DNA from: Bacillota bacterium | GTDB lineage: Bacteria; Bacillota; Sulfobacillia; JAJZYS01; JAJYTV01 | Length of the DNA stretch: 64,000 bases | NCBI GenBank assembly: GCA_021799275.1 | Contig: JAJZAT010000003.1 | Coordinates: 9,708 to 73,707 of the forward strand | Direction: 5' to 3' | Part shown: one piece after another, positions 3,395 to 28,330 of the stretch | Layout: every line of letters begins with the position of its first letter | Numbering within the stretch: the stretch's first letter is position 1 | The notes under the pieces: model-generated | Databases searched by the model: none | What the model was told of the DNA's origin: nothing | Seen by the model: only the letters and a program-made list of their open reading frames with translations | Program-made: the position numbers and the translations under genes

Positions 3395-4120
3395 TCAGCG
3401 CGCCGCGGTTGCCCCGAGCAGCACCACCGCCACAGATGCGAGCGCGATGAAGGGGCCGAAGGCGAAGGCGTCCCTGCCGGTCGCGCGACGCGTCAGCAGC
3501 AGACCAGCCGCATAGAGACCGCCGCAGAGGACCGCGAGGAAGAGCGTCGCGAGGCCCCGTTGCCAGCCGAGCATCAGGCCCACGACCCCAAGATACTTGA
3601 CGTCTCCGAGGCCGAATCCGCCTCGGCCGATCCATGCGATCAGGAATCCGATGCCGAGCAGCAGCAAGGCGCCTAGCGCGCCGGCCAGGTAGGCCGCGCC
3701 GCCCAGCGGCAAGAGCGCCAGGAGGCCCAGCACGGCGGCGACGAGCAGAAGGCGGTTCGGGATGATGCGTCGGCGCATGTCCACGGCGGCCACCGCAAGC
3801 CCCAGCCAAAGCACCAGGAGGTCGAGCGGAAGGGCCAGGCTGAAGCGGAGCCCGAAGAGCAGACCGCTGCCGCACACCGCGCCGAGCTCGAACCAGAGTT
3901 CCGAGCGGCGTGGCAGTGCGCCACACTGCCCGCAGCGGCCCCTGGCCGCGTGCCGCACGAGCGGCAGCTGTACCAGGGCCCCGAGTCGCCCGCCGCAATG
4001 CCGGCAGCGGGAGATCGCGGCGGCTCCGCCCTCGGCGAGGACTTCCACCAGCGGAATCAGGATGGCCGCGGCGGCATAGCCCACGAGCAGACCGAGACCC
4101 ACGGCCAGAAGTCCCTGCAA
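3395..4120 (-). CDS. prepilin peptidase (type IV leader peptidase, A24 family)
   Basis: N-terminal Zn-binding CxxC...CxxC (CRHCGG...CGQCG), a polytopic membrane domain and the catalytic-region motif GGFGLGDVKYLGVVG.; TTG start with GGAGGAGG SD 9 nt upstream. Sits directly downstream of the pelF-like gene. Confidence 0.8.
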   Translation of the reverse strand: MQGLLAVGLGLLVGYAAAAILIPLVEVLAEGGAAAISRCRHCGGRLGALVQLPLVRHAARGRCGQCGALPRRSELWFELGAVCGSGLLFGLRFSLALPLDLLVLWLGLAVAAVDMRRRIIPNRLLLVAAVLGLLALLPLGGAAYLAGALGALLLLGIGFLIAWIGRGGFGLGDVKYLGVVGLMLGWQRGLATLFLAVLCGGLYAAGLLLTRRATGRDAFAFGPFIALASVAVVLLGATAAR

Positions 4121-4156
4121 ACCGCCGGCCTCCTCCGCCTGACGTTCCGCGCTGGG

Positions 4157-5890
4157 CTAGGCGCTCTGTACCTGCGAGAGGATCCAGGCGCTCGCGTAAT
4201 GCTGGATGGCGGCCTCACCGGCACCGAGTTCCGCCTCGAGCGCCGCCACCTGACTCAGGATGGCCGGCGCCGCCGCGCCACCCGGTTCGACGTCGAGGGC
4301 GCGCTGAAACTGGTCGAGTGCGGCGATCGGTACCCCGAGGCGCAGCAGGGCGTAAGCCCTCTGCAAGTAAACGAGCAGACGGTTGGGCGGCACGGCAGGA
4401 TACCCGAACGACTCGTCTCCCGCGGCGACCGCGACCTCGCGCAGAGCCCTCTGCGCCAGCGCGCCGTAGAGCGATTCGTAGGCGCCCGTCGCCTTCTGGA
4501 TCGTGAAGAAGCTCAAGGCGCGCTCGCGCGCGGCCGCACCCAGCCGCTGCCGCAACTCTTCGTCCTGCAGGAGGATGATCATCGCCACCGCGAGCCGTTC
4601 CGGCTCGCGTGACGGCACCGTGATGCCGGTGTCGGCGAGGGCCTCGGCCGTGCCGCCGACGTCGGTGGCCACGATGGGCAGACCGCTCATCATGCCTTCG
4701 ATCACGGAGTACGGGAATGCCTCCGACACGCTCGACTGCACGAGGATGTCGGCCTGGCGGTAGAGCTCCGCCGCGTTCTGCGAGTGGCCCTGGAACAGGA
4801 CGACATCGTCGAGTCCCAACGCGTGGCGCAGTTCCAGCATCTGCTGGTGGTAGTCCTCCACCGCGACGGCCCCCCACACCTCGAGCTTGATGTCGGGGAA
4901 GTGGCCGTGCACGATCGCCATGGCCCGCAGCAGCGTCTCGATGTCCTTGTTCGGGTCGATGCGCGCGATGCTGAGGAGGCGCGGCGGACCGCCGTGCGAC
5001 TCCGGGTTCGGCGCGAAGACCTGCGGGGACACGCCGTTGTAGACGACGTCGATGCGCTCCTGTGGGGCGCCGAGGAGACGCTCCCAACGGGCGTTGAAGG
5101 CGCACACCGGGGTGATGCGATCCGCGAAGTGCAGGTTCGCCCGCACGATCGTGCGCACCGCGGCCAGGAGAAACCGCTTCGAGAAGCGGCTCATGTTGCT
5201 GCGTCCGACCGAGAGGTACTGCTCGCGCAGGTAGACGCCGTGCTCGGTCAGGAGGTAGGGCGTGCCGTACTCCACCTTGGCGACAATGCCCGCCATGCCG
5301 CAGAATGCGGCCGCGGACGAGTGCACGACGTCGACCTCCGGGATGGGCGTGTTGAGCACGGTGAAGAAGTGGTAGATCCAACCGAGCGCCTGGACCGCCT
5401 CGAACACGCTGGGCTCGGTCCAGGAGCCGGTCTCCGCAGCGTCGTGCAGGAAGTCTCGGAACGCCCGCCAGACGACTTCGGACTTGAACGTCTCGCGGTA
5501 GTCGAAGACCTGGAAGTGCCGGTGCATCGCCGCCAGGGCGTAGCCGACCGCCTCGGGGTCGTCGCCGCTCCGCCGCATCTGCTCGAGGAACGTCATCAGC
5601 TCGGGCAGGAAGCCTCTCGAGACCTCGTCGACCGTCGTGCGCTGCTTCTGCAGGAAGATCTCCGAGAACGGCATCTGCTCCTTGTGCTCGGACGGGTCCT
5701 GGGTACCCCAGAGCGGGATCGTGACCACCTGCCGCACGCTCTCAGGGAACTCGAAACGGCTGCGCACGAAGGGGTTCATGGCCACGGCGAAGACGGTGAA
5801 CTCCGCATCGCCCACCAGTTTGACCAGCGTGTCGCACCACGTGCTCACGCCGCCCAGATGATAGGGATAGGTGCCCTCGGTCGCGAGCAT
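4157..5890 (-). CDS. pelF: PelF-type glycosyltransferase (N-terminal DUF3492 + GT4/Glycos_transf_1) with ~90-aa C-terminal helical/TPR-like extension
   Basis: Start MLATEGTYPYHLGGVSTWCDTLV matches the DUF3492 signature that precedes the GT4 domain in PelF. The GT4 C-terminal part carries an E-x7-E-like region. ATG 5888-5890 has an AGGAAAG SD. The tracker ORF is over-extended by 62 codons. Confidence 0.7.
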   Translation of the reverse strand: MLATEGTYPYHLGGVSTWCDTLVKLVGDAEFTVFAVAMNPFVRSRFEFPESVRQVVTIPLWGTQDPSEHKEQMPFSEIFLQKQRTTVDEVSRGFLPELMTFLEQMRRSGDDPEAVGYALAAMHRHFQVFDYRETFKSEVVWRAFRDFLHDAAETGSWTEPSVFEAVQALGWIYHFFTVLNTPIPEVDVVHSSAAAFCGMAGIVAKVEYGTPYLLTEHGVYLREQYLSVGRSNMSRFSKRFLLAAVRTIVRANLHFADRITPVCAFNARWERLLGAPQERIDVVYNGVSPQVFAPNPESHGGPPRLLSIARIDPNKDIETLLRAMAIVHGHFPDIKLEVWGAVAVEDYHQQMLELRHALGLDDVVLFQGHSQNAAELYRQADILVQSSVSEAFPYSVIEGMMSGLPIVATDVGGTAEALADTGITVPSREPERLAVAMIILLQDEELRQRLGAAARERALSFFTIQKATGAYESLYGALAQRALREVAVAAGDESFGYPAVPPNRLLVYLQRAYALLRLGVPIAALDQFQRALDVEPGGAAAPAILSQVAALEAELGAGEAAIQHYASAWILSQVQSA

Positions 5891-5943
5891 GACCCGCACT
5901 TTCCTGGGCACTATCCATCCCCCTTTGTCGCACATCCGAAACC

Positions 5944-6047
5944 TTTGCCGCATCGAGACCCGTTGCAACTTGAAGTTTGGCACACAAAAACGAAGGCATT
6001 TTGCCCGTGTATGTCGTAGTTTGCCATGGTTATCCCGCATTTGGCAA
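5944..6047. promoter_or_regulatory. candidate operator array: four TTTGCC/TTGGCAA half-sites (5944, 6000, 6020, 6041) spaced ~20-21 bp in the divergent pelF / membrane-operon promoter region
   Basis: The AT-richer island between divergent starts 5890 (-) and 6082 (+) carries the repeated hexamer with helical-turn phasing. The last pair forms the inverted repeat TTGCCA-N15-TGGCAA. Confidence 0.3.
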
Positions 6048-6081
6048 TGCCGAGGGACAATCGCCAGGGGAGTCACCCGAG

Positions 6082-7689
6082 ATGAGCATCGCCAGGGGAG
6101 GTCGGGCCACCCGCACGTCCCGGACGGGTGAGGCCCGCGAGCGCCTCCTTCGCCAGGTGGTCGAGGCCAACGGCGACCTGCAGGATGTCATGGACGTGGC
6201 CGCCACGATCGAGTCGCTCGGCTGGAGCGACCGTCGCGTGGAGGACGTGTTCGGCATGCCCAGCGTGTTCGATCTCGCCGAGGACATCTACGCCGACTTC
6301 CTCGCCAGCGTCCGTACGGACCCGATACCGCCGCGCCACGATATGCGCTGGTACCATCTGCTGCGTCTCATCGCGGCCGACTTCTTCCACGGTCTTCTCT
6401 TCGCCCTGCCGATGGTCGTCTCGATCGCTGCGATGGTGATGCTGCACATCAGCATCTGGTCCTACCAGTACTACTCCGTCGCGCAGGCCACGGCGCTCGG
6501 CATCGCGACGTTCCTGAGTTTCGTCGTGACGGGCGGATTCACGCAGGCCATGGCCACGATCTATTACGTCCTGGTCGGCCTGCAGGAGGGGGACCTCGTC
6601 GAGCGCTCCCTCTACCAGATCATGCGCTGGGGCTTCGGCGCCGCCGTCGTGATCGCGATCGCCATCGTCGTCGCGGACTCGGTGTTCCCGATGTTCCCCT
6701 TCTCCCTGGCCTTCTTCATGGTCGTCTACATGATCATGCTGTCGCTGCTTTGGCTCGCGTACGCCAGCCTTTACGTTCTGCGGCGAGAGTACATGCTGAC
6801 CCTGCTGACGGTTGGCTCCATCCTGATCGCCTACTTCATGTGGCGCTTCGGACACAACGTCATCCTGGCGCAGGCGATGGCCATGGCCGCGGCGACCGGC
6901 GGGGCCGTGCTCTCCTGGCTCGTCATCTTCCGCCGCCAGACCCGCAAGTGGCAACACATCGGCCGCATCGTCAAGACCAGGACCTCGCAGCTCGCCTATG
7001 CCTCGGCGAGCTACTTCTTCTACGGCATCCTCTACTTCAGCTTTGTGTTCTCGGACCGCCTGGTCGCCTGGACCACGGCCACGTCGTTCCTGCCGTACAG
7101 CATCTGGTTCCGCGGGGAGTACGAGCTCGGCATGGACTGGGCGCTCTTCGCCCTCATCCTGCCGCTCGGCGCGACCGAGGCGTTCGTCGGCTATGTCATC
7201 CGCTGGCTGATGGTCGCGCAGCACCGCGTCACGGAGCGGAACGTGCAGAACCTGGCTGCCGCGATGCGCGCCGTCTACCTGCGCTGCGTGGCCGGCTTCG
7301 TCGGCGTCGCGGCGATCGGCATGGTCATGGTGCGCATCGGCCTCGCGATCGCCCGCCAGTACCCGATCCTGCGCAACGCGATCCCGATCCACGGCGTCGA
7401 GCCGTTCGTCTTCTCCTGGGCGAGTTTCGCCTACGTCGTCCTGGCGCTCGCGCTCTTCAACGTCCTCCTGATGTTCAGCCTCGCCTACCCCCAGCTGGCC
7501 CTCAGGTCGCTGCTCATCTCCCTTGCGGCCGACATCACGGTCGGCATCATCGCCACGCGTATTCTCGGCGCGTACCAGTTCGCCGTGGTCGGCCTCATCG
7601 CCGGCGTCATCTGCCTGGTCGTGCTGACCACGGTGGACGTGCTCCGGCTGCTGCCGCGCGTCGACTTCATGCTCTACCGCATGGCCTGA
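6082..7689 (+). CDS. 12-TM integral membrane protein, PelG-like / MOP-type putative exopolysaccharide exporter
   Basis: Twelve or so hydrophobic helices follow an ~90-aa cytoplasmic N-terminus. The N-terminal pattern W-Y-H-L-L-R-L-I-A-A-D-F-F-H-G-L-L-F-A is reminiscent of the PelG N-terminus. Divergently adjacent to pelF. ATG 6082 with GGGGAG SD. The function call is tentative. Confidence 0.55.
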   Translation: MSIARGGRATRTSRTGEARERLLRQVVEANGDLQDVMDVAATIESLGWSDRRVEDVFGMPSVFDLAEDIYADFLASVRTDPIPPRHDMRWYHLLRLIAADFFHGLLFALPMVVSIAAMVMLHISIWSYQYYSVAQATALGIATFLSFVVTGGFTQAMATIYYVLVGLQEGDLVERSLYQIMRWGFGAAVVIAIAIVVADSVFPMFPFSLAFFMVVYMIMLSLLWLAYASLYVLRREYMLTLLTVGSILIAYFMWRFGHNVILAQAMAMAAATGGAVLSWLVIFRRQTRKWQHIGRIVKTRTSQLAYASASYFFYGILYFSFVFSDRLVAWTTATSFLPYSIWFRGEYELGMDWALFALILPLGATEAFVGYVIRWLMVAQHRVTERNVQNLAAAMRAVYLRCVAGFVGVAAIGMVMVRIGLAIARQYPILRNAIPIHGVEPFVFSWASFAYVVLALALFNVLLMFSLAYPQLALRSLLISLAADITVGIIATRILGAYQFAVVGLIAGVICLVVLTTVDVLRLLPRVDFMLYRMA

Positions 7690-7700: not shown

Positions 7701-9656
7701 ATGCCGCTCCCCCTTTCCATCGAACTCGATACCATGCTGAGGCTCGTGATCTGCGGACTCGTCCTCTTTTATCTCTGGCCGCGCTACGTCTTCGCCGTCG
7801 ACGGCGACGTCGCCCGCGCGGACCGCCTTGCCGGCTACGCCGCCCGCATGCTGCTGCTCGTGGCCGGAGCCGCATTGGGGCTCGCGGCGGTGCATGCCTT
7901 CAGCTGGTTCACCCTGGCGGTCCTGGTCTTCGCACCGCGCCTTCTGAAGGTGCAACCGGACACCGGCCAGGGCCGCGGCGTAGGGGTCGGGTCACGTCTT
8001 CTGGGCGATCTCGACCGGCTCGGCAGCCTGCCCCGCCGCGCGTGGGCCTTCCTGCGCAAGGGCCTGCAAGGGCCCTGGCGGGTCACGTGGAGGCCGTCCG
8101 TCTACGTTCTCGCCGGTGGTTTCCTGCTCGCTGTCCTGCTCGGCGTCTCCGCCTACCTGCGTCTCGCCCCTGCCTTCGCCCATGCGGGCATCGCGTTTTC
8201 CGACTCGAATGTGGTGCTCTACTGGGTGCAGGCGATCGGACAGCAGATCCTGTTTCCGAACGGCATCTACCCGGAGGGCTTCCACGCCGCCGTCGCTGGG
8301 CTCATGCGCCTCAGCGTCGCGAGCCCGATCGCGACCATCAAGTTCATCGGCCCGATCATCGGCGTCGCCATGGTCGGTTCGGTGGGATTCGCCGCCTACC
8401 GCCTGACCGGGCGTTTCGCTCCGGCCGCGGTCGCCATGCTGGTCTACGGCACGCTGCCGCACCTGCTGCCCTACATCTATCTGCGCCAGGCCGGCACCGA
8501 CTCGCAGGAGTTCGGCAACATGCTCGTGCTGCCGACGCTCTGGTTCGTCTACGCCTCCTGGGTGAAGCAGGGGAATTGGTATCGCGGCACCGCCATCGCC
8601 CTCTTGGCGATGGCGGCGCTCACCCATCCGATCGTCTCCCTCAACGCAGGTCTCGCGGCCGTCGCGGCGACAGTGGCCGCCTGGCTCACGGTGGGCGTGC
8701 GCTGGCAGACGCTGGGGTGGTGGTTGCGTTGGCTGCCAGTGGCGTTGGTATTGGCCGTGGCGCCGCTCGTCGTAGCCCTGGCGATCGGCATCCCCCTCAA
8801 CACCGCCAGCGTGGGATTCGCCGCGCAGACCACGGCCGCCGCAGCTCCGCCGATCACCACGCTGGACAAGCTCGCGCTGCTCTCGGCTTGCATGCTCCTG
8901 CTGGTCCGCGCCGTGCGCCTTGTCGCCAGGAGGGCTGAACGCGCAGATCTCGGTATGCCGCTAGCCGCCCTCCTGACCCTCGTCGCGGCCCTCGCCATCC
9001 AGGAGGCCGCGACGTTCGGCATCCACCTGCTGGCGCTGCAATCCCGTTCCGGCGAATTCGTCGCGCTCGCCGTTGCGCTCTGCCTCGGTATGAGCGTCTC
9101 GGCCGTGCAGGAACTGCTCGAGCTTGTCCGCCCCGCCTTCGGGCGCTGGGCGGGTCTGCTGCTTGCGGCGGGTGTGGTCGCGGGCGCCTGGGCCCAGAGC
9201 GCACCCCAGCCGTTCAACCCCTTTCCGACCTACCGCTGGCTGCCCGACGACTTCGTCGTGGCGTACGCCCGCATCGCGGCCACCCAGCCGAGCGGCAGCT
9301 GGCTCGCGGTATCGGACGACAGCGGCTTCGACTACGCGTACGGCCAGGGTCTCTTCATGACCGCCGCCGACTTTGCGCAACACGTCGGTACCAAGGGCCC
9401 TTGGCCGACCTACCACCACCCAGGCCAGGCGACCAGGCCCCTTGCCACACGTCATCTCTTCATCTTCGTCGACCGCCGCATCGTCGTGGCGCCGTCCTAC
9501 AGCACACCCACGGTGCCTCGCCGGCAGGCGGTGCAGAAGCTGATCCGCGGCTGGGTGAACCGCTGGGAGCGGACGCACGGCCCACTCCACGTCTACTTCC
9601 GTGGGCCCGACCTGACCGTTTACGAGTTGACAGCCCCGGGCTGGGGGTCGTCCTGA
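7701..9656 (+). CDS. large polytopic membrane protein, paralog A (651 aa): N-terminal TM bundle + C-terminal extracytoplasmic domain; uncharacterised (GT-C-like?)
   Basis: ATG 7701 with GGAGG SD, 12 nt after the stop of the upstream gene. ~60% identical to paralog B. Conserved N-terminus MPLPLxIELxT..RL..G.V.YLWPRYVF, first-loop motif FSDSNVVLYWVQ, C-terminal WLPDDFVVAY...SDDSGFDYAYGQG...LHVYFRGPDLTVYEL. Confidence 0.75.
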   Translation: MPLPLSIELDTMLRLVICGLVLFYLWPRYVFAVDGDVARADRLAGYAARMLLLVAGAALGLAAVHAFSWFTLAVLVFAPRLLKVQPDTGQGRGVGVGSRLLGDLDRLGSLPRRAWAFLRKGLQGPWRVTWRPSVYVLAGGFLLAVLLGVSAYLRLAPAFAHAGIAFSDSNVVLYWVQAIGQQILFPNGIYPEGFHAAVAGLMRLSVASPIATIKFIGPIIGVAMVGSVGFAAYRLTGRFAPAAVAMLVYGTLPHLLPYIYLRQAGTDSQEFGNMLVLPTLWFVYASWVKQGNWYRGTAIALLAMAALTHPIVSLNAGLAAVAATVAAWLTVGVRWQTLGWWLRWLPVALVLAVAPLVVALAIGIPLNTASVGFAAQTTAAAAPPITTLDKLALLSACMLLLVRAVRLVARRAERADLGMPLAALLTLVAALAIQEAATFGIHLLALQSRSGEFVALAVALCLGMSVSAVQELLELVRPAFGRWAGLLLAAGVVAGAWAQSAPQPFNPFPTYRWLPDDFVVAYARIAATQPSGSWLAVSDDSGFDYAYGQGLFMTAADFAQHVGTKGPWPTYHHPGQATRPLATRHLFIFVDRRIVVAPSYSTPTVPRRQAVQKLIRGWVNRWERTHGPLHVYFRGPDLTVYELTAPGWGSS

Positions 9657-9699
9657 ACGCCTCCCGCACCGACGTCGTCCACGCTGAAGGAGGACCAAG

Positions 9700-11679
9700 A
9701 TGCCCTTACCCCTGGGGATCGAGCTATCCACCCTCGCGCGTCTGATCCTCGGCGGAGCCGTCGTGCTCTACCTCTGGCCGCGCTACGTCTTTGGCAGGGT
9801 ACCGGACGCGCCGGGCGTCGACGCCGCCGTAGGCTACGTGGCCCGCATGGTCGTGGCGCTGATCGTGGCGGGGTATCTCCTGGTGGGGACGCACCTTTAC
9901 AGTTGGGTCACCCTCGTGATCCTCCTGGCGCTGCTCGGTTTCCTGCACCCGAGAACCTCTCTGAACCCGTACGAACTGAACAGGAGCAGCCGCCTCGCGG
10001 CCCGTCTGCTCACCGAGATCGACCTGCTCGGCAGCTGGCCCGCGCGGCTGCGCGAACGCCTAAAGGCCCGCCGCGGCGGCGATGACGGGACACGGCGCAG
10101 GCTCGGCGCCTACGAGCTGGTCGGAGGACTCGTGCTGCTGGCCGTCCTCGCCGTTTCCGCCTGGCTCAGGCTCGGATCGCCGCTGCAGCACGCTGCCATC
10201 CCATTCTCCGACTCCGACGTGGTCCTCTATTGGGTGCAGTCGATCGAGCAGCAGATCCTGTTCCCGAGCGGCATCTATCCTGAAGGCTTTCACATCGTGA
10301 TGGCCGATCTCATGCGCCTGACGGCGGCCAACCCGATCGTCACGGTGAAGTTCTTCGGCCCCCTGGTGGGCGTGGCGATGGTGCTGTCCGTCGGCTTCGC
10401 CACCTACCGCCTGACCGGCCGCCTCGCCCCCGCCGCGGTCGCCGTGCTGGTCTACGGCACCCTGCCCCACTTCCTCCCCTACGATTACCTGCGGCAGGTC
10501 GGCACGGACTCGCAGGAGTTCGGCAACGCCTTCGTCCTGCCGACGCTCTTCTTCGTCTACGCCTCCTGGGTCAACGACAAGGCATGGTATCGGGGCACGG
10601 CCGTGGCGCTACTCGCCATCACCGGGTTCACCCATCCGAACGTGGCCGTGAACGCGGCGCTGTCGGCGATCGCCGGCACCGTCGCGGCGTGGCTCGTCGC
10701 CGGCGTGCGCAAAGAGGCCCTGAGCTGGTACGTGCGCTGGACGTCGACCGCCATCGTGGTCGCCGTGCTGCCGATCATCATCGCGCTCGCCGTCGGCGTC
10801 CACCTGAACTCCTCCGGTGCCGGCTTCGCGACCGCCGTCAGCCATGCCCCGCCGCCGCCGATCAAGTGGGAGAACCTGCTCGCCATCGCGTCCGCCGTAG
10901 CGCTCGTCCTGGTCCGAGGGGTGCGCCTGATCGCCCGCCGCTGCGACCGCCTCGAGTTTGGGGCCCCGATCGCCGGGCTGCTCGCGCTCCTCGCCGCGCT
11001 CGCGGTCAGGGAGGCGGCGATGTTCGGCATCCATTCGGTGGCTCTGCTCTCGCGCTCCGGCGAGTTCGTCGCCCTGGCGGAGGCGCTGGCCTACGGCATG
11101 GGCCTTTCAGCCGTGCAGGAGGCCCTCGAACTTCTGCACGTGGCCACGGGCCGCTGGCTGGCGTTGGCGGGCGCGACCGCCCTCATCGCCTTCGGCTGGC
11201 TGCACTACCGCCCGCAGCCGTGGAACGCCTTCACCAGCTCACGCTGGCTGCCGGACGACTTCGTCGTGGCGTATGTCGACATCGGCTCGACGCTGCAGCG
11301 CGGCAACTGGCTCGCCGTCTCGGACGATAGCGGCTTCGACTACGCCTATGGCCAGGGCTACTTCCTGCGCGGTCCGGTCTTCCTCCAGCATGTCCCCACC
11401 ACGGGGGCCTGGCCGAGATACGTGTCCGGCGGAAGCTCAACGCCGTTCGCCGAGCACCACATCTTCATCTTCGTCGACAAGGGACTGAAGGTCGCCAAGG
11501 GTTACCAGTATGTCGTCAAGCCCCGCCGCGCGAAGGCCCAGGCGGCGATCCGCAAGTGGGTCGCCGGGTGGCAGGCCAGCCACGGTCCCTTGCACGTCTA
11601 TTTCCGCGGTCCGGACGTCACCGTCTACGAACTCTCGCGTTCGAGTGCCGCGCCGTCGCGCGCGGGCCGGGCCGACTGA
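9700..11679 (+). CDS. large polytopic membrane protein, paralog B (659 aa), tandem duplicate of paralog A
   Basis: ATG 9700 with AAGGAGGA SD. Same motif set as paralog A (FSDSDVVLYWVQ, YGTLPHFLPYDYLRQVGTDSQEFGN, LHVYFRGPDVTVYEL). Confidence 0.75.
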   Translation: MPLPLGIELSTLARLILGGAVVLYLWPRYVFGRVPDAPGVDAAVGYVARMVVALIVAGYLLVGTHLYSWVTLVILLALLGFLHPRTSLNPYELNRSSRLAARLLTEIDLLGSWPARLRERLKARRGGDDGTRRRLGAYELVGGLVLLAVLAVSAWLRLGSPLQHAAIPFSDSDVVLYWVQSIEQQILFPSGIYPEGFHIVMADLMRLTAANPIVTVKFFGPLVGVAMVLSVGFATYRLTGRLAPAAVAVLVYGTLPHFLPYDYLRQVGTDSQEFGNAFVLPTLFFVYASWVNDKAWYRGTAVALLAITGFTHPNVAVNAALSAIAGTVAAWLVAGVRKEALSWYVRWTSTAIVVAVLPIIIALAVGVHLNSSGAGFATAVSHAPPPPIKWENLLAIASAVALVLVRGVRLIARRCDRLEFGAPIAGLLALLAALAVREAAMFGIHSVALLSRSGEFVALAEALAYGMGLSAVQEALELLHVATGRWLALAGATALIAFGWLHYRPQPWNAFTSSRWLPDDFVVAYVDIGSTLQRGNWLAVSDDSGFDYAYGQGYFLRGPVFLQHVPTTGAWPRYVSGGSSTPFAEHHIFIFVDKGLKVAKGYQYVVKPRRAKAQAAIRKWVAGWQASHGPLHVYFRGPDVTVYELSRSSAAPSRAGRAD

Positions 11680-13634
11680 TGGCCGGCGCCGTGGCAACCG
11701 CCCTGCAGGTGACGATCGGCGTCCTGGTGGCGGTCCTGCTGCTGCCCTATCTGCTGGTGCGCCGCGACCACGGCCTCCGTCCCTTCGCGGCCCTCTGGCG
11801 CACGCTTGCGCTTGGCACGGCGGCATGGACGTCCCTCGGCTTCCTGCTGGCCGCTGCCTCCAGCGTGGAACTGGCCACCATCGGTCTCATCATCGCCTTC
11901 GCGGTCGGCCTCGCGGCCTACATGCGCCGCCGTCGCGGCAGCCTTGCGGTCCAGACCCAGCGCCGCAACCAGCAGACGGCGAAGCTGCTGGACGCCATGG
12001 ACCCCGAAGGCGAGCATTCCTTCCTCTCCCTGGCCGCCGACGCCATGCGCCAGCTTGGGGCATGGCTCGGCAGGGTCGGGCGCTCCTTCATCCAGGCCGA
12101 CGTGCTGCTCACTTGCCTCGCCCTCGCCGTGATCGCGGCGCGCCAGTTCGCCCCGCTTCTGGCGCAGGCCGCCCCGGGCACGCCAGCAGGCTATGTGCAG
12201 TTGCTCGCCACCAAAGACATCGCCTTGAACCTCGGCCTCTACCAGTCGGGCGTCTACCCGTTCGGCGTGCCGGTCCTGGCGGCGCTCGTCGCGACCACCT
12301 TCTTCTTCGACCCGCTCAACGTGCTGCGTTTCCTCGGGCCCCTCGTGGCCCTCCTCCTGCCGCTGGCCGGCGGCTTCCTGGCCATGGAGATCGCGGACAG
12401 CGGCTGGGCCGTCTTCGCCACCGTGGTGCTGATCGGCTTCTCCTTCTTCCCCGCGATCGGCCCAGGCTCCGTGACCACCTGGCATCCGCTCGCGCTGCAC
12501 TTCGCGGCCATCTTCGTCCTGGCCGAGCTGGGCTTCAGCCTGCGCGCCCTGCGTCGCGACTCGCCGACCGACGCCGCGCTCGCGGGCGTCGCGGGCTTCG
12601 TCGCCGTCATGGCGCAGCCCCTGGCCTGGCCCTACGCCGTCGGCAGCGCCATCCTGATCTGCCTGCCATGGCTGCGCGGCCACCGCATGGCGCTGCGGCT
12701 CATCGGCCGCATCCTGCTCGGCAGCCTGGTCGGACTCGTACCGGTGGCCATCGGCCTCGTGGGCCACCATGCCATCAACACGCTCCTCATGGCGCCGCAA
12801 GCCCTGCCGAGCCAGCCCGTGCCAACCTGGCTCTCCGGCTGGAGCGGCCTGGCGCTGCTACTGTTGGCCGGCGCCATGGTGACGGTCGCCGCGCTCATGC
12901 GCTGGCAGTCGCTGGGGAACGACGCGCCGCTCTACTTGGGCATCGGCCTTCTGCTGGCCTGCCTCGGTGTCGTCGGTGCCCTGCCGCTGCAGGGTGTCTG
13001 GCGGACTCCCCTAGCCCTTGGCGACTTCCTCGGACTCCTGGCCGTACCCCTCGTCGTCGGCTACGCCTTCTCGCTCGTGGCGAATCGCCTATCCTATCCT
13101 TCGGCCGCCCATGGCCTGGCCGCCCTGGCACTCGCCGCCTGCCTCGCGGTGGGGATTCTACCGCCGCAGCCTTTGGCGCGCTATGAGGTGCCCGGCTCGG
13201 AGGAGGTGCTGCAGCAGATCTCCGGCTCGTTCGAGGCGTACCAGTGGACCGTCATCTCGCCCACGGAGCAGTACAGCGAACTCCTGGGCAAAGGTTGGCA
13301 TGTGGAGCTGACGCAGTTCCTCTCGAAACTGCCGCTCTCGGTCGCGCGGGACGCCAGGATCAAGCCCTACGCCTGGCCGCATCTGGCCATTTTGACGTCG
13401 GACACGTTCCTCTACGTGCCCCGTGTCACCGCCGACGGCGTGCGGCCGACGGCCGGCGATCTGAAGCTCCCCGTGCCGCAGTCGCTGCAGGCCGCCGAGA
13501 ACGTGGGCCCGGCAGGCGCCGTGCTCGATGCGCACGCCTACGCCTGGGCCATGGCCTACCATCATGCCCATCCGGCGACATCGAGCATCTATTACCGCAA
13601 GCCGGACCTTCTGGTGCTCTGGATCCGTCAGTGA
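11679..13634 (+). CDS. large polytopic membrane protein, distant paralog C (651 aa)
   Basis: ATG overlaps the TGA of paralog B (ATGA coupling at 11678-11681). Same size and architecture. The C-terminus retains a Y-Y-R-K-P-D-L-L-V motif comparable to YFRGPDLTVYEL of A and B. Confidence 0.7.
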   Translation: MAGAVATALQVTIGVLVAVLLLPYLLVRRDHGLRPFAALWRTLALGTAAWTSLGFLLAAASSVELATIGLIIAFAVGLAAYMRRRRGSLAVQTQRRNQQTAKLLDAMDPEGEHSFLSLAADAMRQLGAWLGRVGRSFIQADVLLTCLALAVIAARQFAPLLAQAAPGTPAGYVQLLATKDIALNLGLYQSGVYPFGVPVLAALVATTFFFDPLNVLRFLGPLVALLLPLAGGFLAMEIADSGWAVFATVVLIGFSFFPAIGPGSVTTWHPLALHFAAIFVLAELGFSLRALRRDSPTDAALAGVAGFVAVMAQPLAWPYAVGSAILICLPWLRGHRMALRLIGRILLGSLVGLVPVAIGLVGHHAINTLLMAPQALPSQPVPTWLSGWSGLALLLLAGAMVTVAALMRWQSLGNDAPLYLGIGLLLACLGVVGALPLQGVWRTPLALGDFLGLLAVPLVVGYAFSLVANRLSYPSAAHGLAALALAACLAVGILPPQPLARYEVPGSEEVLQQISGSFEAYQWTVISPTEQYSELLGKGWHVELTQFLSKLPLSVARDARIKPYAWPHLAILTSDTFLYVPRVTADGVRPTAGDLKLPVPQSLQAAENVGPAGAVLDAHAYAWAMAYHHAHPATSSIYYRKPDLLVLWIRQ

Positions 13635-14506
13635 CCGGCCGGAACCAGCCTATCGCCGCTGAACGCCCAGGTCTCGAGCGGCTGCCGGGCAAGGTCCGGA
13701 ACCTGGGGGCCCATCGGCACGAACGTCACCTGGCGCAGGAGGTCCCCGAGCAGCCGCCGCAGGTGGCCGCGGCCGAAGCCCATGCTGAAACGGGCCACGG
13801 CCCCGGCGGAGGCCGGTAGCGACCAGCCCGCCGGGGCCACTTCCCACGGATGGGCGTAGAGTACCCGCGGCGCGCCGCCTCTGAGCGCGGCGACCACCAG
13901 GGCCGACGGCAGGAGACGCCAGTAGATGCCCCCCGCGACCGGCACGCGCAGGCCGAACCAGGACTGCACCGCCGGCGGCAGCTCCAGGATCGAGCCGGAA
14001 CCGGCCTGGGCCTGCAGTCGGTAGGGTGACGCAGGGGCGCCGGCCACGCCGTAGAGCGGCGTGCGCAGCGGAAAGACGCTCGAGTCGTAGCGAAAGCCGA
14101 GATCGGAGAGGGCCTCGACCGCCCAGGCGCTGCGCGGGGTGAGCGACCAGGTGGCCGCCCGGTAGCCCTGGACGCCGGTGCCCGCAAGGTCCTCGAGGAT
14201 CGCCTTGGCGTCCTTGACCTCGCGGCGGAAGCGTTCCTCCCCGATCTGCCAGAGGAGGTCGTGCGTAAGGCCGTGGCAGGCTACCTCGTGTCCGGCCGCC
14301 GCGATCGCCCGGACGCTTTCGGGCAGTTCGCGGGCCAGGCCGCCGAGCACGAAGAACGTCGCCCTCGCGCCATGCGCGGCCAGGAGCCCCAAGACCGCGT
14401 CGAGCTCCCGGCGCGCGAAGTCGGGCTGTGGGGCGACGGGCGCCGTTGCCAGCGTGGCGTCGTACCAGTGCTCGACATCGATCGAGAGCATGTGTGGCCC
14501 TACCAT
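13628..14506 (-). CDS. polysaccharide deacetylase family protein (CE4/PuuE-like fold with C-terminal DUF3473)
   Basis: N-terminus MLSIDVEHWYD resembles the TIGR03006/DUF3473 deacetylase subfamily (SVDVEDYF). Has the His pair ACHGLTHD. The 3' end overlaps paralog C convergently by 7 nt. Start M125 of the tracker ORF, with an AGGTGA SD. Confidence 0.7.
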   Translation of the reverse strand: MVGPHMLSIDVEHWYDATLATAPVAPQPDFARRELDAVLGLLAAHGARATFFVLGGLARELPESVRAIAAAGHEVACHGLTHDLLWQIGEERFRREVKDAKAILEDLAGTGVQGYRAATWSLTPRSAWAVEALSDLGFRYDSSVFPLRTPLYGVAGAPASPYRLQAQAGSGSILELPPAVQSWFGLRVPVAGGIYWRLLPSALVVAALRGGAPRVLYAHPWEVAPAGWSLPASAGAVARFSMGFGRGHLRRLLGDLLRQVTFVPMGPQVPDLARQPLETWAFSGDRLVPAGH

Positions 14507-15630
14507 CGCATCACCTGCCGCCATGTCCCGATATCGAAGAGGTGGCCCAGCACGGCGAGCAGGAAGCCCCCGACGGGCCCGAGGTCGCCCGGGTCGACGA
14601 TGTCGTCCACCAGCCGCTCGCCGGGCAGGCGCCTCGGCGCACCCTTGGCGAGACCACGCAGCGGGTGGCGCAGGAGATGCAGGAGGTCCGACGGCAGAGA
14701 CCAGCGGCAAAGCACTGCGGTATCGTAGGCTGCCGGCCCGCTCACGGTCTGTCCGAGCGCAAGTTCCGCCCAAAGCCGGGGGAAGTCCACCCCCGCCGCC
14801 ACCGCGAGCCCCAGGGACGCCCAGGGCCTCGGGTTGATCTCCAGAAGCTGTGGTGAGCCGTCGGGTGCTTCGAGCCATTCCACCTCGGCGAGTCCCGTCC
14901 AGCCGATCGGCTGCAGCAGCTGGCGCGACAGCCCGACAAGATCGTCCCGCACCACGCTGCGCTGCAGGGTGCTCGTGCCGTGCTCCCCTGGGAACCAGCG
15001 CAGCTCCTCCTGGCAGAACGTGGCCCTAAGACTCCCATCCCTGGCGTAAAGGAGGCCCACGTCGAACTTGCGTCCGCGCGGCAGGCGCCGCTGCACGAGA
15101 TGCCCTCGGAGGTCCGCGGGCAGGGCTTCGAGATGCTGCGGCAGATAGCGCACGCCGCGTCCCCCGGAACCCACGCGGGGCCGCAGCACGACTTCCCCCC
15201 CGAGCATGGCCCTGGCGTCGGCTAAGTCCCCTTCCGTCCCGACCGGAACGCTCTCGGGATGGGGTACGCCGGCCCGGACGGCGAGTTCCATCGTGCGCCA
15301 CTTGTCGCGGCCAATCTCGAACTGCTCCGCCGTCGGCAGGAGGCTCTTCGCCGTCAGCGCGTCGCCGCAGGCGATCGCGGCCGCGGTGGAGAGGTCGTCC
15401 ATCGGCAGCACGAGATCCACCTCTGCCGCGACGGCGAGAAGCCAGTCCTGGAATGCGGCACTCCCCGGTCGCGGGCTCCTCAGGGCCCGGCCGGCGTATC
15501 GGGACCACCGTGCGAGGCTGAACGTCGTATCGTCGGCGACCCACGGCTCATAGCCCGCCCGGCCCAGAGAGCGTGCGGCCACGAGCGTCTTGCGCTGCAG
15601 TCCATCGGTGAGGAGCACCCTCACCTTCAT
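14500..15630 (-). CDS. ATP-grasp domain protein (carboxylate-amine ligase-like)
   Basis: ATP-grasp central and C-terminal motifs (VLRPRVGSGGRGV..., LLEINPRP). Overlaps the deacetylase start by 7 nt and the GT2 gene by 4 nt, so the three are translationally coupled. Confidence 0.65.
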   Translation of the reverse strand: MKVRVLLTDGLQRKTLVAARSLGRAGYEPWVADDTTFSLARWSRYAGRALRSPRPGSAAFQDWLLAVAAEVDLVLPMDDLSTAAAIACGDALTAKSLLPTAEQFEIGRDKWRTMELAVRAGVPHPESVPVGTEGDLADARAMLGGEVVLRPRVGSGGRGVRYLPQHLEALPADLRGHLVQRRLPRGRKFDVGLLYARDGSLRATFCQEELRWFPGEHGTSTLQRSVVRDDLVGLSRQLLQPIGWTGLAEVEWLEAPDGSPQLLEINPRPWASLGLAVAAGVDFPRLWAELALGQTVSGPAAYDTAVLCRWSLPSDLLHLLRHPLRGLAKGAPRRLPGERLVDDIVDPGDLGPVGGFLLAVLGHLFDIGTWRQVMRW

Positions 15631-16406
15631 ACAGGGGCGGCCCGGCGCATGATCTCAGGCAGGCAGGTCACCTCGTAGGAATCCTCCGGCGGCCTGCGCC
15701 GGCGCAGGCCGAACGTGACGCGCAGGAAGGCGATCAGGCCCATGGACATGTTGTTCAACCCGTCCCGGATCCGAGCCCCCTTGCGGTAGAACGCCACCCT
15801 CGTCGGCATGGTGTTGTCCATCTTCCAGCCGCGCCGAACCGGCAGGATGCCCAGTTCTTGCGCGCAGCCGTAATTTCGTCCGGTGAAGTACGGCATGATG
15901 TCAGCGATGACCTTGAGGCGCATGAGGCGGAAGCCGCACTCGATGTCCCGGAACATGTAACCCGTCAAGAGGCTGGCCCAGAGCGAGAGGCCCCAGTTGC
16001 CGATGCGCTTGCTGAGCGGGTAACCGGAGAGGTCCCTTTGGCCGAGCAGCACGTCCGCGCCACGCTCCTCGATGCTCCGTACGGCGGGCCCCGCCTCTTC
16101 CGGGATATGCTGGCCGTCGGCGTCCATCGTGATGACGATGTCCTCGGCCCCCAGAACGCCGAGGCGCATCAGGCCGAGCAGATAGTCGAATCCGGTCCGC
16201 AAGGCGCCAGACATGCCGCGGTTCGCCGGATGCGTCAGGAGCGCCACCTTGCCATGCGTCTGGCACCAGGTGCGCACCAATCTGCTCGAGGTGTCGCGCG
16301 AACCGTCGTCGACAACGACCAGGAGATCCGCGAACGGCTCCGCCCGGTGAAGCACGTCCACGATGGTGCGCTCCTCGTTGTAGGTAGGGATCAGAAACAC
16401 GACCAT
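15627..16406 (-). CDS. glycosyltransferase family 2 (Dpm1/polyprenyl-phosphate sugar transferase-like)
   Basis: VVFLIPTYNEE..I..VL, VVVDDGSRD and DADGQH motifs typical of GT2 DXD enzymes. Confidence 0.8.
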   Translation of the reverse strand: MVVFLIPTYNEERTIVDVLHRAEPFADLLVVVDDGSRDTSSRLVRTWCQTHGKVALLTHPANRGMSGALRTGFDYLLGLMRLGVLGAEDIVITMDADGQHIPEEAGPAVRSIEERGADVLLGQRDLSGYPLSKRIGNWGLSLWASLLTGYMFRDIECGFRLMRLKVIADIMPYFTGRNYGCAQELGILPVRRGWKMDNTMPTRVAFYRKGARIRDGLNNMSMGLIAFLRVTFGLRRRRPPEDSYEVTCLPEIMRRAAPV

Positions 16407-16488: not shown

Positions 16489-17286
16489 TCAGCGCCCCAG
16501 CGCGACGCGGCCATCCACCGTGCGGACGCCGCGGGCGTAGTCGAGGGGCGCGGCATAGGAAAGAAAGCCGTAGCGCTTCGACAGGTCGTCCAGTACGCGC
16601 AAGCGCGGGGCCGCCGCCGCATCGTCCGGGATCTCGCTCAAAAGCATCGGCGTGATGCCTTCCTGGCGCACCACCTTGGCGATCTGCTCCAGAACCATCC
16701 GCAGCCAAGGCCCTGTCGTCTCGTCCGGATCGAAGCTGCCCTCCCAGCAGACGCCGTCGATCAGCTGGGCGACGAGCGGTAGCAGCAGGAAAATGCCATT
16801 GTTCTGCAGCAGCAGCCGGTCGCCAACGGCCTGGCGCACGCCGCGCACGAGATCGGCCGCGGCGGGCAGCAGCCAGCCTGACCTGTCCTGGACGAGCTGA
16901 TCCTCGACGTCGCCGAGGTTGTCGAGAAAGACGCCGTCCCAACCCTCGCCGACCAGGCGGCTCGCCTCCCGCAGCACGTGCTCGCGCCAGGGGCGCGCGC
17001 GAGGGTCGACGACGTAGGTGTCGAACTGCTCGCGCCGCCAGGGACCCTCTCCCGCGCGCAGCAGCTGGCGTTCTGCGACGCCGATGCGGTTCAAGGTCGC
17101 CCGCGTCGCCTCCATGGCGGAGAGATAGGCGATGCAGCGCACGCCATGGCTTCTAAGGGCCTGGACATCCTCGCGCCGCCACCCGGCGGGCTCCAGGATG
17201 GCGATGTCGTACGACGAGATCTCCGGCAGCGGACCGTATCCGTAATACACGACAAACGTGCGGCCTCGCAGTCGGGGTGCGCGCAC
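16489..17286 (-). CDS. GH114-like glycoside hydrolase (TIM barrel; PelA-hydrolase/Ega3-like endo-alpha-1,4-polygalactosaminidase family)
   Basis: Motifs VVYYG, CIAYLSAME and DGVFLDNLGDV resemble the GH114 conserved blocks (vicYfSaG..., DGvFLDnvD). No signal peptide is evident, so the call is moderate. Confidence 0.55.
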   Translation of the reverse strand: MRAPRLRGRTFVVYYGYGPLPEISSYDIAILEPAGWRREDVQALRSHGVRCIAYLSAMEATRATLNRIGVAERQLLRAGEGPWRREQFDTYVVDPRARPWREHVLREASRLVGEGWDGVFLDNLGDVEDQLVQDRSGWLLPAAADLVRGVRQAVGDRLLLQNNGIFLLLPLVAQLIDGVCWEGSFDPDETTGPWLRMVLEQIAKVVRQEGITPMLLSEIPDDAAAAPRLRVLDDLSKRYGFLSYAAPLDYARGVRTVDGRVALGR

Positions 17287-17313: not shown

Positions 17314-18924
17314 CTAGGCGCCCTGTTCGATGGGCAGGATGCCGCGATCGGCGAAGATCTCGATCAAGGCCCCCACCATATCGGGATCGAGCTGGCTGCC
17401 GGCGATGAGCTGCATCTCCCTGAGCGCCCTGGCGGGCGGCAGAGCCGCGCGGTACGTGCGGGCGGAGGTGCGCGCGACGTAGACCTCGGCGCACGCCACG
17501 ATGCGGGCGAAGAGATCGATGTCGGTGCCCGCGAGGCCGTCCGGGTAGCCCTGGCCGTCCCAGCGCTCGTGGTGATGGCGCACCGCGAGCACGACGCCTG
17601 CCGGCACGACGTCCCCGGGCAGCCCCGACAGCAGGTTCGCGCCGACGACGGGATGCTGCTGGATGACCGTGCGGCTCTCGGCGCTCAGGCCGCCCCTGGT
17701 CTTCGGCAGGTCTAGGGCGACCGACACCATGCCGACGTCATGCAGCCGTCCGGCGAGGTGGAGCGCCTCGACCTGCGACGACTCGAGCCTCAGCCGCCTG
17801 CCGATGTCGCGCGCCACCTCCGCGACGCGCTTCGAATGGTCGTGGCTGAGGTCCTCCGCCGCGTCGAGCAGATCGGCCGCCGACAGCAGCGACTGAAGGT
17901 AGCTCTGGCCGAGACTGAACGTGTAGAGATGGCTGCCGATCGTACGCCGCAGGCTCTGCGAAAGGGAGGTCAGCACGAAGGTCACGCGCTCGCTCAGCTC
18001 GGGGCGGATCGCGAGGCCGTAACCCACCGCGCCGCCTCGCGTGTCCTCGCGCACGGACACGAGCGCGAAACCCTGGTAGCCGAGCTGGGCGACGCCGTCC
18101 GGCAGGTCCGGCGCGACCCAGAGCCCCGCCCGCAGACTGGGCAGACGCCGCGGGTCGAGGGCGAAAAACAGCTGTTCCCCGCCACCCATCCGCCAGATGT
18201 CCTCGACGACATCGTCATGCCAGGCGACGCAGTAGCCGGCCCCCGCCTCGATCGCCTCGCCGCCGAGGCGCGCGACCAGGCCAAGGAGCTTGTCCGACTG
18301 CAACGTGAACTCCGACGCCAGCTGCTTCGTGGTGCTCTCCACGGCGACGCGCTCGCCTTCCGCGGTCGTGTCGTCGAGCGCGAGCAGGACCTGCAGCATC
18401 GGCTCAAGCCGAGCGCCGTAGGAAAGGAGGAGCTTGCGCTCGGGCTCCGCCACGTGCTGGCGGCGCGCCAGCGCTGCGCGCAACAGGACGCGCGGCCCCA
18501 CGCCGAGCGACAGGTACGGGTCACCCTGCGGCCCATCCTCCTGGCAGGTCAGGCCGGCGCGGCCAGGCGGCAGTTCGAGCGGCGCCTGCCGGATCGGCGC
18601 ACCGGCGACCAGTCCGGCGTAGTTGATGCCTACCTGCGGCGTGCCTGTCTCCGCACGGGTCAGGCGCAACTGCAGCGGCGCGCCTTCGGCCGGCGCGACA
18701 TAGGCGTAGTAGCCGTCGGCGGGCAGGAGGTCCGCCAGCCCTACAAGCGCGTAGAGAAGGATTTCCGCCACGTCGTAGGGCGGTGCCACCTTGGCGCGCA
18801 GTGCGTCCCACACCTCGTCCACGGTGGCCCTGCGCCCGCGAGGTCGGCTGAAGAGGCTTGCGCCGGCGAGCGCGGCATAGGAAAGCCACTGGGCGTGCAA
18901 CAGTCCATCAACTCCAACGCTCAA
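17314..18924 (-). CDS. HD-GYP domain c-di-GMP phosphodiesterase with ~330-aa N-terminal uncharacterised sensory domain
   Basis: HD motif (LSHDHSKRVA, HDVG) and the canonical HHERWDGQGYP signature. ATGA overlap with the upstream membrane-protein gene. Confidence 0.8.
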   Translation of the reverse strand: MSVGVDGLLHAQWLSYAALAGASLFSRPRGRRATVDEVWDALRAKVAPPYDVAEILLYALVGLADLLPADGYYAYVAPAEGAPLQLRLTRAETGTPQVGINYAGLVAGAPIRQAPLELPPGRAGLTCQEDGPQGDPYLSLGVGPRVLLRAALARRQHVAEPERKLLLSYGARLEPMLQVLLALDDTTAEGERVAVESTTKQLASEFTLQSDKLLGLVARLGGEAIEAGAGYCVAWHDDVVEDIWRMGGGEQLFFALDPRRLPSLRAGLWVAPDLPDGVAQLGYQGFALVSVREDTRGGAVGYGLAIRPELSERVTFVLTSLSQSLRRTIGSHLYTFSLGQSYLQSLLSAADLLDAAEDLSHDHSKRVAEVARDIGRRLRLESSQVEALHLAGRLHDVGMVSVALDLPKTRGGLSAESRTVIQQHPVVGANLLSGLPGDVVPAGVVLAVRHHHERWDGQGYPDGLAGTDIDLFARIVACAEVYVARTSARTYRAALPPARALREMQLIAGSQLDPDMVGALIEIFADRGILPIEQGA

Positions 18925-22809: not shown

Positions 22810-23209
22810 GGCGATAAAGCAGATCGCCCAATGACCATACGGCGATTTGCCTGCGTTGATTCTACTCCATCCGTCAAGTTCCTGCAGCACTTTCCTCGCA
22901 TGGCAGACCCGCCGGCGTGCCGCCACCACTGCCTGCGCCAGCCATTTGCATCCGTCCGTCCCGCCGATGCGCCCCGGCGATGAAATAGACCGACTGGTCC
23001 CAGGCGTCCTGACGATACGAGGCGGGCAACGTCAAGCCAGAACCGCCCACGGATTCGCCATGGCCCGGAACACGACCCCCAACAGATAGCGGGCCGCGGC
23101 GTCCAGCCCGAGCGGCAGCATGTTCCGCATGACCCGCTGGCGGTGTGCAGACGGCGCAGCCCAAGTCTCTGGGATCGCAGACGAGGAGAGCGTTGTCGCT
23201 CGTCACGCG

Positions 23210-23920: not shown

Positions 23921-23976
23921 CTCGAGTCCTCCCCTCGCAGTCGTCCTGAGTACACCCGAAGGTTCCCGCCGTGACG

Positions 23977-26501: not shown

Positions 26502-26601
26502 GATAGGCCCGGGCCGTTTCGCTCGGCTCGATACTTCCCCAAATGTATCGACGCAGGATTGCGGCACGTTCCACATCGACCTGGAGGTGGCACCCGTGAC
26601 C

Positions 26602-28292: not shown

Positions 28293-28330
28293 CTTGCGTC
28301 AATATGGTAGCGTGAGATCGAATCCGCGTG

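Follow-up and report, generated by a model that had tools for sequence, protein, structure and literature searches.

Three paralogous genes in a Pel-like locus

The window analysed here is a stretch of 64,000 nucleotides (nt) from a genome of Bacillota (GenBank assembly GCA_021799275.1, contig JAJZAT010000003.1, positions 9,708 to 73,707), with a G+C content of about 68%. It contains three consecutive, co-oriented genes, here called A, B and C, for large polytopic membrane proteins that lie in a polysaccharide locus. An initial annotation had described them as a tandem trio of paralogs, possibly related to glycosyltransferases (GTs) of the GT-C type. The three open reading frames (ORFs), of 651, 659 and 651 amino acids (aa), are present exactly where it placed them:

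Gene A, 7701-9656, plus strand: 651 aa, predicted GT-C-fold membrane protein with the full conserved signature, GTC1 orthogroup
Within gene A: FSDS motif at nt 8196-8207, with the predicted catalytic D168; TDSQEFG loop at nt 8496-8516; H309 in THP at nt 8622-8630
C-terminal alpha/beta domain of gene A: residues ~500-651
Gene B, 9700-11679, plus strand: 659 aa, paralog of A with the full signature, FSDS at nt 10204-10215
Gene C, 11679-13634, plus strand: 651 aa, degenerate ortholog of the second paralog of the family (GTC2), with the same architecture

Gene A begins 11 nt past the upstream stop codon and is preceded by GGAGG. Translational coupling had been proposed for the whole trio. It fits B and C, where the stop of the former and the start of the latter overlap in TGATG, but A and B are separated by a gap of 43 nt with a GAAGGAGGA ribosome-binding site ahead of B, so that this pair is operonic rather than strictly coupled.

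Proteins A and B both begin with MPLPLxIEL and are 56% identical over their full length, close to the ~60% estimated before, with peaks of identity in the outer loops EL1 (73%) and EL2 (79%) and in transmembrane (TM) helices 2-3 (79%). Protein C shares ~20% identity with A and B. The view of C as a diverged copy is upheld by hhalign, which aligns the A-type and C-type profiles end to end (99.6% probability, E 2.4e-24, 609 columns), although BLASTP barely detects the relationship (E 0.16, a single colinear stretch of ~100 residues). C is a true, very distant paralog and the trio is real; this alignment and the orthology of C to GTC2 rule out both a chance similarity and a separate family. The motifs formerly ascribed to each of the three proteins, FSDS(N/D)VVLYWVQ, WLPDDFVVAY, SDDSGFDYAYGQG and LHVYFRGPDLTVYEL, are found in A and B but not in C, which reads GTPAGYVQLL, YEVPGSEEVLQQI, SPTEQYSELLGKG and SIYYRKPDLLVLWI at the aligned positions.

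A large family without a name

The statement that no family signature is recognisable was accurate: scans of A, B and C against Pfam-A and NCBIfam at E <= 1 assign no family, a lone match to CcoM being due to chance, and all three stay below the gathering threshold of every curated hidden Markov model of a GT-C family (PMT_2/ArnT, STT3, YfhO, Emb/Aft, DUF6541 and others). GT-C enzymes are not easily recognised from sequence. Profile searches against the sequences of the Protein Data Bank (PDB) with alignments of 15 and 40 sequences likewise return nothing significant, the GT-C enzyme TMEM260 appearing only at E 6.6. Faint hints come from divergent relatives. Among 40 diverse members, four have sub-threshold matches to DUF6541, the best of them (E 1.5e-7) covering the TM2-7 region; the two matches inspected one by one reach 27.3 and 22.2 bits, where the cutoff is 29 bits. 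One member matches PMT_2 weakly. Among curated models, DUF6541 alone gives statistically meaningful matches, below its gathering threshold, to distant members; we take it to belong to the GT-C clan. It is itself uncharacterised, and A, B, C and most other members do not match it at E <= 0.1.

A word-indexed protein search yielded 15 relatives for A and five for C, from which the family might have seemed extremely rare. This idea is overturned by a profile search run exhaustively over 1.84 billion cluster representatives: 1003 proteins match at E <= 1e-3, of which 351 remain at E <= 1e-30. The family thus comprises about 1000 representatives of clusters at 50% identity. Nearly all of the best 150 of the 1003 matches are 630-720 aa long, and most of them align over almost their full length. 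The closest genomes are metagenome-assembled genomes of high-G+C Bacillota/Clostridia. The few members that are named, one of them from Alicyclobacillus mengziensis, bear the label "hypothetical protein", as was true of every named member that we looked up. No description was found in the literature searched on the family, on DUF6541 and on the PelF/PelG locus type to which the genes belong.

Fold and topology

An AlphaFold2 model of protein A, built from an alignment of 20 sequences, has a mean predicted local distance difference test score (pLDDT) of 83.9 and a predicted template modelling score (pTM) of 0.84. Its elements are as follows:

Residues 5-25, 39-63 and 69-81: N-terminal helices
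Residues 82-133: basic segment of low confidence, with 10 Lys and Arg against 3 Asp and Glu
Residues 134-160: TM helix
Residues 169-180 and 193-205: two short helices of an outer loop
Up to residue 499: ten more TM helices
Residues 500-651: alpha/beta domain

Compared with the PDB by Foldseek, the model has as its first 16 matches exclusively GT-C chains or complexes that contain them, among them STT3, DPY19, AftA, PglB and AftD, with E-values from 1.6e-4 and a probability of 1.00. AglB is also among the structural matches, and the monophosphate-donor enzymes ArnT, ALG9, AftA and Pmt4 score equally well. The GT-C fold is supported because the top structural matches are all of this class and because the divergent members give the DUF6541 and PMT_2 hints mentioned above. 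We are highly confident that the proteins have a GT-C fold and form a new family, so that the earlier, queried likeness to GT-C enzymes is borne out at the level of the fold. The N-terminal module of the model, made up of TM1-7 and a first outer loop that carries two juxtamembrane helices, superposes on solved enzymes of the GT-C_A class, and the family is about equally distant from every solved GT-C_A family.

In the predicted architecture, two or three additional helices at the N terminus are followed by a basic loop in the cytoplasm, a GT-C core of 11 TM helices and an extracytoplasmic alpha/beta domain. A polytopic body followed by a soluble C-terminal domain had been expected, and the model agrees, with the polytopic part reaching to about residue 499 and the domain measuring about 150 residues. 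Lys and Arg are clustered in the loops assigned to the cytoplasm and nearly absent from those assigned to the outside, and for this reason the C-terminal domain is placed outside the membrane. The charge balance of residues 82-133 leads to one revision: the large first loop, formerly regarded as extracytoplasmic, is predicted to be cytoplasmic. In the model the FSDS motif comes after the next TM helix (134-160), on the outer side.

Candidate active site of A and B

Conservation was measured across 168 members of the family. The conserved polar residues are R154, S167, D168 (96%), W175, Y190, R262, Q263, Q269, E270, H309 and R449, and in the predicted topology all of them sit in or beside outer loops at the outer membrane face. 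Some 150 of the 168 members keep all of the 12 signature positions except the variable position 267, and the five commonest patterns account for 127 members.

In GT-C_A enzymes a catalytically essential Asp stands at the tip of juxtamembrane helix 1 (PMC12041299). D168 lies, in the model, directly N-terminal to the helix of residues 169-180, that is, at this very tip, and may be the counterpart of the catalytic Asp, the equivalence being one of position only. A and B carry the Asp there and retain every other conserved residue of the signature, whereas C has an Ala. As far as can be read from their sequences, A and B look catalytically competent, and we regard them as probable active transferases that depend on lipid-linked sugars. 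The evidence on the donor is circumstantial: the company of a PpgS/ArnC-like family 2 glycosyltransferase (GT2) with DUF2304 and MurJ/MatE proteins in the loci described below, together with the polar residues of the outer loops, suggests that a polyprenyl-phosphate or polyprenyl-diphosphate sugar is used at the outer face.

None of A, B and C contains the WWDYG motif. The candidate position for it in A and B reads SGFDYAYGQG and is poorly conserved in the family as a whole, except for W534, Y/F543, G548 and G550.

Gene C, a degenerate but maintained paralog

Of the conserved polar residues, C lacks R154, S167, D168, W175, R262, Q263, Q269, E270, H309 and R449; the signature of C and its close relatives (P0016-P0020, P0042, P0048 and the copy in the locus labelled L004) reads QPAAYTTLLHQA or similar. 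By BLAST orthology, A and B both belong to GTC1 and C belongs to GTC2. In Psychrobacillus, Paenibacillus and the loci L007 and L014, GTC1 is represented by the family gene that comes first after pelG, and GTC2 by the second family gene. The GTC2 signature is intact in Psychrobacillus, Paenibacillus and L007, so that its loss is specific to the clade of the window. Within this clade L004 possesses one live copy and a dead copy, and L001, L002 and the window two live copies and a dead copy. B originated when the GTC1 gene was duplicated, within the clade or earlier.

The ratio of nonsynonymous to synonymous substitution rates (dN/dS) against the orthologs in L002 amounts to 0.21 for C, and to 0.13, 0.11 and 0.12 for A, B and pelG, respectively. 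The value for C shows that the gene is kept by purifying selection. A decaying pseudogene is ruled out by the same value and by the intact frame of 651 codons across the clade. C is probably a non-catalytic partner or scaffold.

The Pel-like locus of the window

The location in an exopolysaccharide (EPS) locus, noted before, is correct and can be sharpened: the locus is specifically Pel-like. The interpretation given in the initial annotation is supported in its essentials, with corrections for the cytoplasmic N-terminal loop, for C, which is motif-less and looks catalytically dead, and for the type of locus. Besides A, B and C the following genes were recognised, among them a polysaccharide deacetylase of carbohydrate esterase family 4 (CE4) and a protein resembling glycoside hydrolase family 114 (GH114):

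1459-2400, plus strand: NAD-dependent sugar epimerase (GalE-like), syntenic with the locus
4157-6076, minus strand: PelF-like glycosyltransferase of family 4 (GT4) with N-terminal DUF3492; PF11997 and PF00534; NF038011 (PelF) with 153 bits against a cutoff of 100
6082-7689, plus strand: divergent PelG-like polytopic protein, 535 aa, directly upstream of A
13628-14491, minus strand: CE4 polysaccharide deacetylase with DUF3473 (TIGR03006-like)
14500-15630, minus strand: ATP-grasp ligase
15627-16406, minus strand: soluble GT2, with PpgS, dolichyl-phosphate hexose transferase and ArnC as best NCBIfam matches
16489-17286, minus strand: GH114-like (PelA-hydrolase-like) protein, weak Pfam match
17314-18924, minus strand: soluble HD-GYP (HD_5) protein, 536 aa, with intact HDVGM and GQGYPDG motifs
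18921-20120, minus strand: polytopic membrane protein, 399 aa, ~8-10 TM helices, no match in Pfam (E <= 1) or NCBIfam
20117-22252, minus strand: coiled-coil protein, 711 aa, with an N-terminal DivIVA-like coiled coil, ~400 acidic or Pro-rich residues and a C-terminal TM helix
22255-22929, minus strand: coiled-coil protein, 224 aa

The product of 4157-6076 has the combination that marks PelF, a GT4 domain with N-terminal DUF3492. The PelG-like protein of the window has zero Pfam matches at E <= 1; its full-length relatives (30-45% identity) carry PF16933, and one of them is named PelG by NCBI. The soluble GT2 is, by its matches, a candidate for the maker of a lipid-linked donor. The CE4 and GH114-like proteins open directly with their catalytic domains, as they also do in L009, L011, L012 and L014. 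Because both are devoid of a signal peptide and of TM helices, they are predicted to be cytoplasmic, unlike the exported deacetylase and hydrolase domains of PelA.

No PelD- or PelE-like protein and no GAF or GGDEF match was seen in the locus, which holds the HD-GYP and DivIVA-like coiled-coil proteins instead. The two coiled-coil proteins are homologous to the small genes between pelF and pelG elsewhere (L007 and L009; DivIVA matches in L014-L016), and may be functional stand-ins for PelD and PelE. The HD-GYP protein is a candidate for the link to cyclic di-GMP (c-di-GMP). It has an uncharacterised N-terminal region of ~330 residues and is kept in nearly all such loci, at the place that PelD has in canonical Pel systems.

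Homologs of the MurJ/MatE flippase and of DUF2304 proteins were absent from the window by tblastn. Since the window is without such a flippase, the 399-aa membrane protein is a candidate replacement for it. This protein shows no similarity to the MurJ-like protein of L007, and it is syntenic beside the HD-GYP gene only in the clade of the window (L001, L002 and L004). A 524-aa ORF at 22806-24380 (minus strand) is not a gene, being rich in Arg, Gly and Ala as is typical of out-of-frame readings of high-G+C DNA.

Gene order in other genomes

Twelve independent contexts were compared, namely the clade of the window, L004, L007-L009 and L011-L017, which include Alicyclobacillus mengziensis, Psychrobacillus lasiicapitis and a Paenibacillus. 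In eleven of them the family gene lies within a pelF/pelG locus that also holds a GT2 gene, and all but one of these copies stand directly after pelG. The same loci usually also contain genes for DUF2304, a MurJ/MatE flippase, an ATP-grasp ligase, CE4/DUF3473, HD_5 and a GH114-like protein. The canonical order is pelF, two small genes, pelG, GTC1, GTC2, ATP-grasp, CE4, MurJ, GT2, DUF2304 and HD-GYP, closed by the GH114-like gene where the contig reaches that far (L011, L012 and L014).

The putative polyprenyl-phosphate-sugar synthase, the flippase and the GT-C protein occur together in the canonical loci L009, L011, L012, L014, L016 and L017; the window has the GT2 and GT-C genes and lacks a recognisable flippase and DUF2304. 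Each locus carries one to three paralogs of the family. A strict tie of two GT-C paralogs to the ATP-grasp and CE4 genes is not supported, as L017 has both of the latter with a single GT-C gene. The sole exception to the pel linkage is L013 (7944-11971), in which a tandem pair of family genes (654 and 656 aa, 48% identical) stands beside a UbiA-family prenyltransferase, with no pelF or pelG nearby.

In Alicyclobacillus mengziensis (CP071182, L008) a protein of the exosortase EpsH family is encoded at 4102-5712, immediately upstream of pelF. The best match of the CE4 protein of the window is the model "XrtA system polysaccharide deacetylase", and the two observations together hint at a link to EPS loci of the exosortase type.

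Relation to known systems

The family is a new sequence family inside a known structural superfamily, in a new combination with a synthase system of the Pel-like type. CAZy continues to gain families, GT136 being one example (PMC11127046). ArnT (GT83) shares 12% sequence identity with the present family, which has no PMT_2/ArnT Pfam match and differs from it by the additional N-terminal helices, the long basic cytoplasmic loop, the set of conserved residues and a context that is not that of lipid A. From STT3, AglB and PglB (GT66) it differs in the lack of WWDYG and of a GT66 signature, in 11 instead of 13 core TM helices with N-terminal extras, and in its association with polysaccharide rather than protein glycosylation.

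At the level of pathways, the parts list of the canonical locus matches that of GacI/GacJ/GacK/GacL, which build the GlcNAc (N-acetylglucosamine) side chains of streptococcal rhamnose polysaccharide, and that of CsbB/GtcA/YfhO (PMC8035078). There is, however, no detectable sequence relationship to GacL or YfhO, and the backbone would here be made by the synthase-type PelF/PelG system and not be a wall polymer built by the ABC or Wzx/Wzy route. The DUF2304 protein is presumably the GacJ-type small membrane partner. Compared with the ArnC/ArnD/ArnEF/ArnT pathway, an ATP-grasp ligase is added, and we infer that the CE4 protein acts on the donor and not on the polymer.

The pelDEA(DA)FG operon of Bacillus cereus shares with the present locus type the PelF-like and PelG-like proteins and the proximity of GalE-like, GH114-like, CE4 and c-di-GMP-related proteins. 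It differs in that PelD and PelE are not recognisable here, that an HD-GYP protein is the c-di-GMP element, that the CE4 and GH114-like proteins lack export signals, and that genes for GT-C, GT2, DUF2304, a flippase of the multidrug/oligosaccharidyl-lipid/polysaccharide (MOP) type and an ATP-grasp ligase are added. None of the GT-C genes, the GT2/DUF2304/MOP module or the ATP-grasp ligase is among the pel accessory genes reported in PMC7112168. Many Bacillota, including cultured Paenibacillus, Psychrobacillus and Alicyclobacillus mengziensis, carry a Pel-like locus quite unlike the operon described, and the family now has a candidate set of catalytic residues and a fixed set of genomic partners.

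A proposed glycosylation module and its alternatives

In a published scheme, polymers made inside the cell are decorated outside the cytoplasm by the joint action of a soluble GT-A enzyme and its small membrane partner, a flippase of the Wzx/MATE type and a GT-C enzyme (PMC8035078; PMC11127046). We propose a glycosylation pathway because the canonical locus has exactly the parts of this scheme plus the PelF/PelG core. It seems to us fairly likely, though by a smaller measure than the activity of A and B as such, that this new GT-C_A family supplies the sugar-transferring enzyme in a multi-component extracytoplasmic glycosylation module that is joined to the Pel-like system.

The soluble GT2 (PpgS/GacI/ArnC-like), assisted by the DUF2304 partner in other genomes, would attach a hexosamine-type sugar to undecaprenyl phosphate on the inner side of the membrane. 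An N-acetylhexosamine is plausible as this sugar because of the PpgS-like match and the adjacent epimerase. The cytoplasmic CE4 protein and the ATP-grasp ligase may then tailor the lipid-linked sugar, as ArnD does in the Arn pathway, and a MOP-type (MurJ/MatE) flippase, for which the 399-aa membrane protein is the candidate in the window, would carry the donor outward. There A and B would use D168 together with R262, Q263, E270, H309 and R449 to transfer the sugar to an extracytoplasmic acceptor, most likely the polymer that PelF makes and that leaves the cell through PelG. C, which descends from a second, normally catalytic, paralog, would be a non-catalytic partner. What the analysis establishes is the genes and their paralogy, the fold, the conserved residues and the synteny, whereas the activity, the donor, the acceptor, the tailoring steps and any complex of A, B and C are proposals.

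The donor could alternatively be a glycan on undecaprenyl diphosphate, with A and B acting in the manner of PglB, AglB and STT3 as oligosaccharyltransferase, ligase or polymerase that attaches or assembles it en bloc on the Pel-like polymer, on peptidoglycan or on a protein. Such a role would fit the MOP flippase and the similarity of the model to the structures of AglB, STT3 and PglB. However, flippases of the MATE/Wzx type also serve systems with undecaprenyl-phosphate sugars (PMC11127046, PMC8035078), and in the structural comparison the monophosphate-donor enzymes score equally well. The absence of WWDYG argues against the diphosphate donor, as does the co-conserved GT2, which resembles synthases of undecaprenyl-phosphate monosaccharides, and none of the 12 loci examined showed an initiating phosphoglycosyltransferase. 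We consider this alternative unlikely.

The chances that the acceptor is the Pel-like polymer are, in our judgement, about evenly balanced. The characterised Pel is an unbranched polymer of galactosamine (GalN) and N-acetylgalactosamine (GalNAc) (PMC9135694), which can be counted in favour of transferases that are active on some other acceptor, such as a teichoic acid, a secondary cell-wall polymer, an S-layer protein or a lipid, with the pelFG linkage reflecting co-regulation only. The members of L013 stand away from pel genes, and the characterised multi-component GT-C systems of Gram-positive bacteria all decorate teichoic acids or wall polysaccharides (PMC8035078). Against this stands the order of pelG, GT-C, then ATP-grasp, CE4, flippase and GT2, which is held even where the members are 20-25% identical; a shared product is likely because so tight a gene order across very divergent Bacillota is otherwise hard to explain. 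We consider a separate acceptor of this kind unlikely, slightly more so than the diphosphate donor.

Least probable of all is a non-catalytic scaffold or channel partner of PelG with a GT-C fold, which would replace functions of PelD, PelE or PelB and bind polymer or lipid by its polar residues: the position of the family gene nearly always right after pelG, the lack of recognised canonical pelD and pelE in the locus, the persistence of the fold without the signature in C and the existence of non-enzymatic GT-C-fold proteins (PIG-U and GAB1) speak for it, but the Asp at the tip of juxtamembrane helix 1 and the outer-face Arg, Glu and His are kept in ~90% of the members across 20% identity, as one would expect if they formed an active site of the GT-C type (PMC12041299). 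Further points against it are the GT2 dedicated to lipid-sugar synthesis that the locus conserves and the occurrence of the family pair of L013 without pelF and pelG.

Returning to the glycosylation module, its most elaborate version holds that the Pel-like polymer is decorated after export with a tailored amino sugar, de-N-acetylated by CE4 and perhaps reacylated by the ATP-grasp ligase at the lipid-linked stage, through a hetero-oligomer of the GT-C paralogs; in the lineage of the window C, the second subunit, would have become a pseudo-enzyme, and the duplication of the first into A and B would compensate for it. In this full form we hold the proposal to be doubtful. If it is true, this would be the first time that a synthase-dependent system of the Pel type is found joined to a lipid-donor glycosylation module resembling Arn or Gac, and the hetero-oligomer would be the first bacterial GT-C heteromer with a dead subunit that lies outside the Emb and Pmt paradigms. 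The trio of two live paralogs and a dead one would, if confirmed, be a natural system for studying hetero-oligomers of GT-C proteins and the evolution of pseudo-enzymes, and the matrix polymers of the Pel type would, likewise if confirmed, be chemically more varied than the linear GalN/GalNAc chain of Pseudomonas.

Flanking genes

At the left edge of the locus lie a lytic transglycosylase with an SLT domain and a PcsB-like coiled coil (227-1384, plus strand) and a type IV prepilin peptidase (A24; 3395-4120, minus strand), with the epimerase gene between them. Beyond the EPS locus the window encodes a sigma factor of the extracytoplasmic function (ECF) type (25008-25553, minus strand), a tryptophanase-like beta-eliminating lyase (26191-27984, plus strand), LexA (28328-29089, plus strand) and a cluster of the arginine deiminase (ADI) pathway, with ADI, ornithine carbamoyltransferase and carbamate kinase (30409-33704, plus strand).

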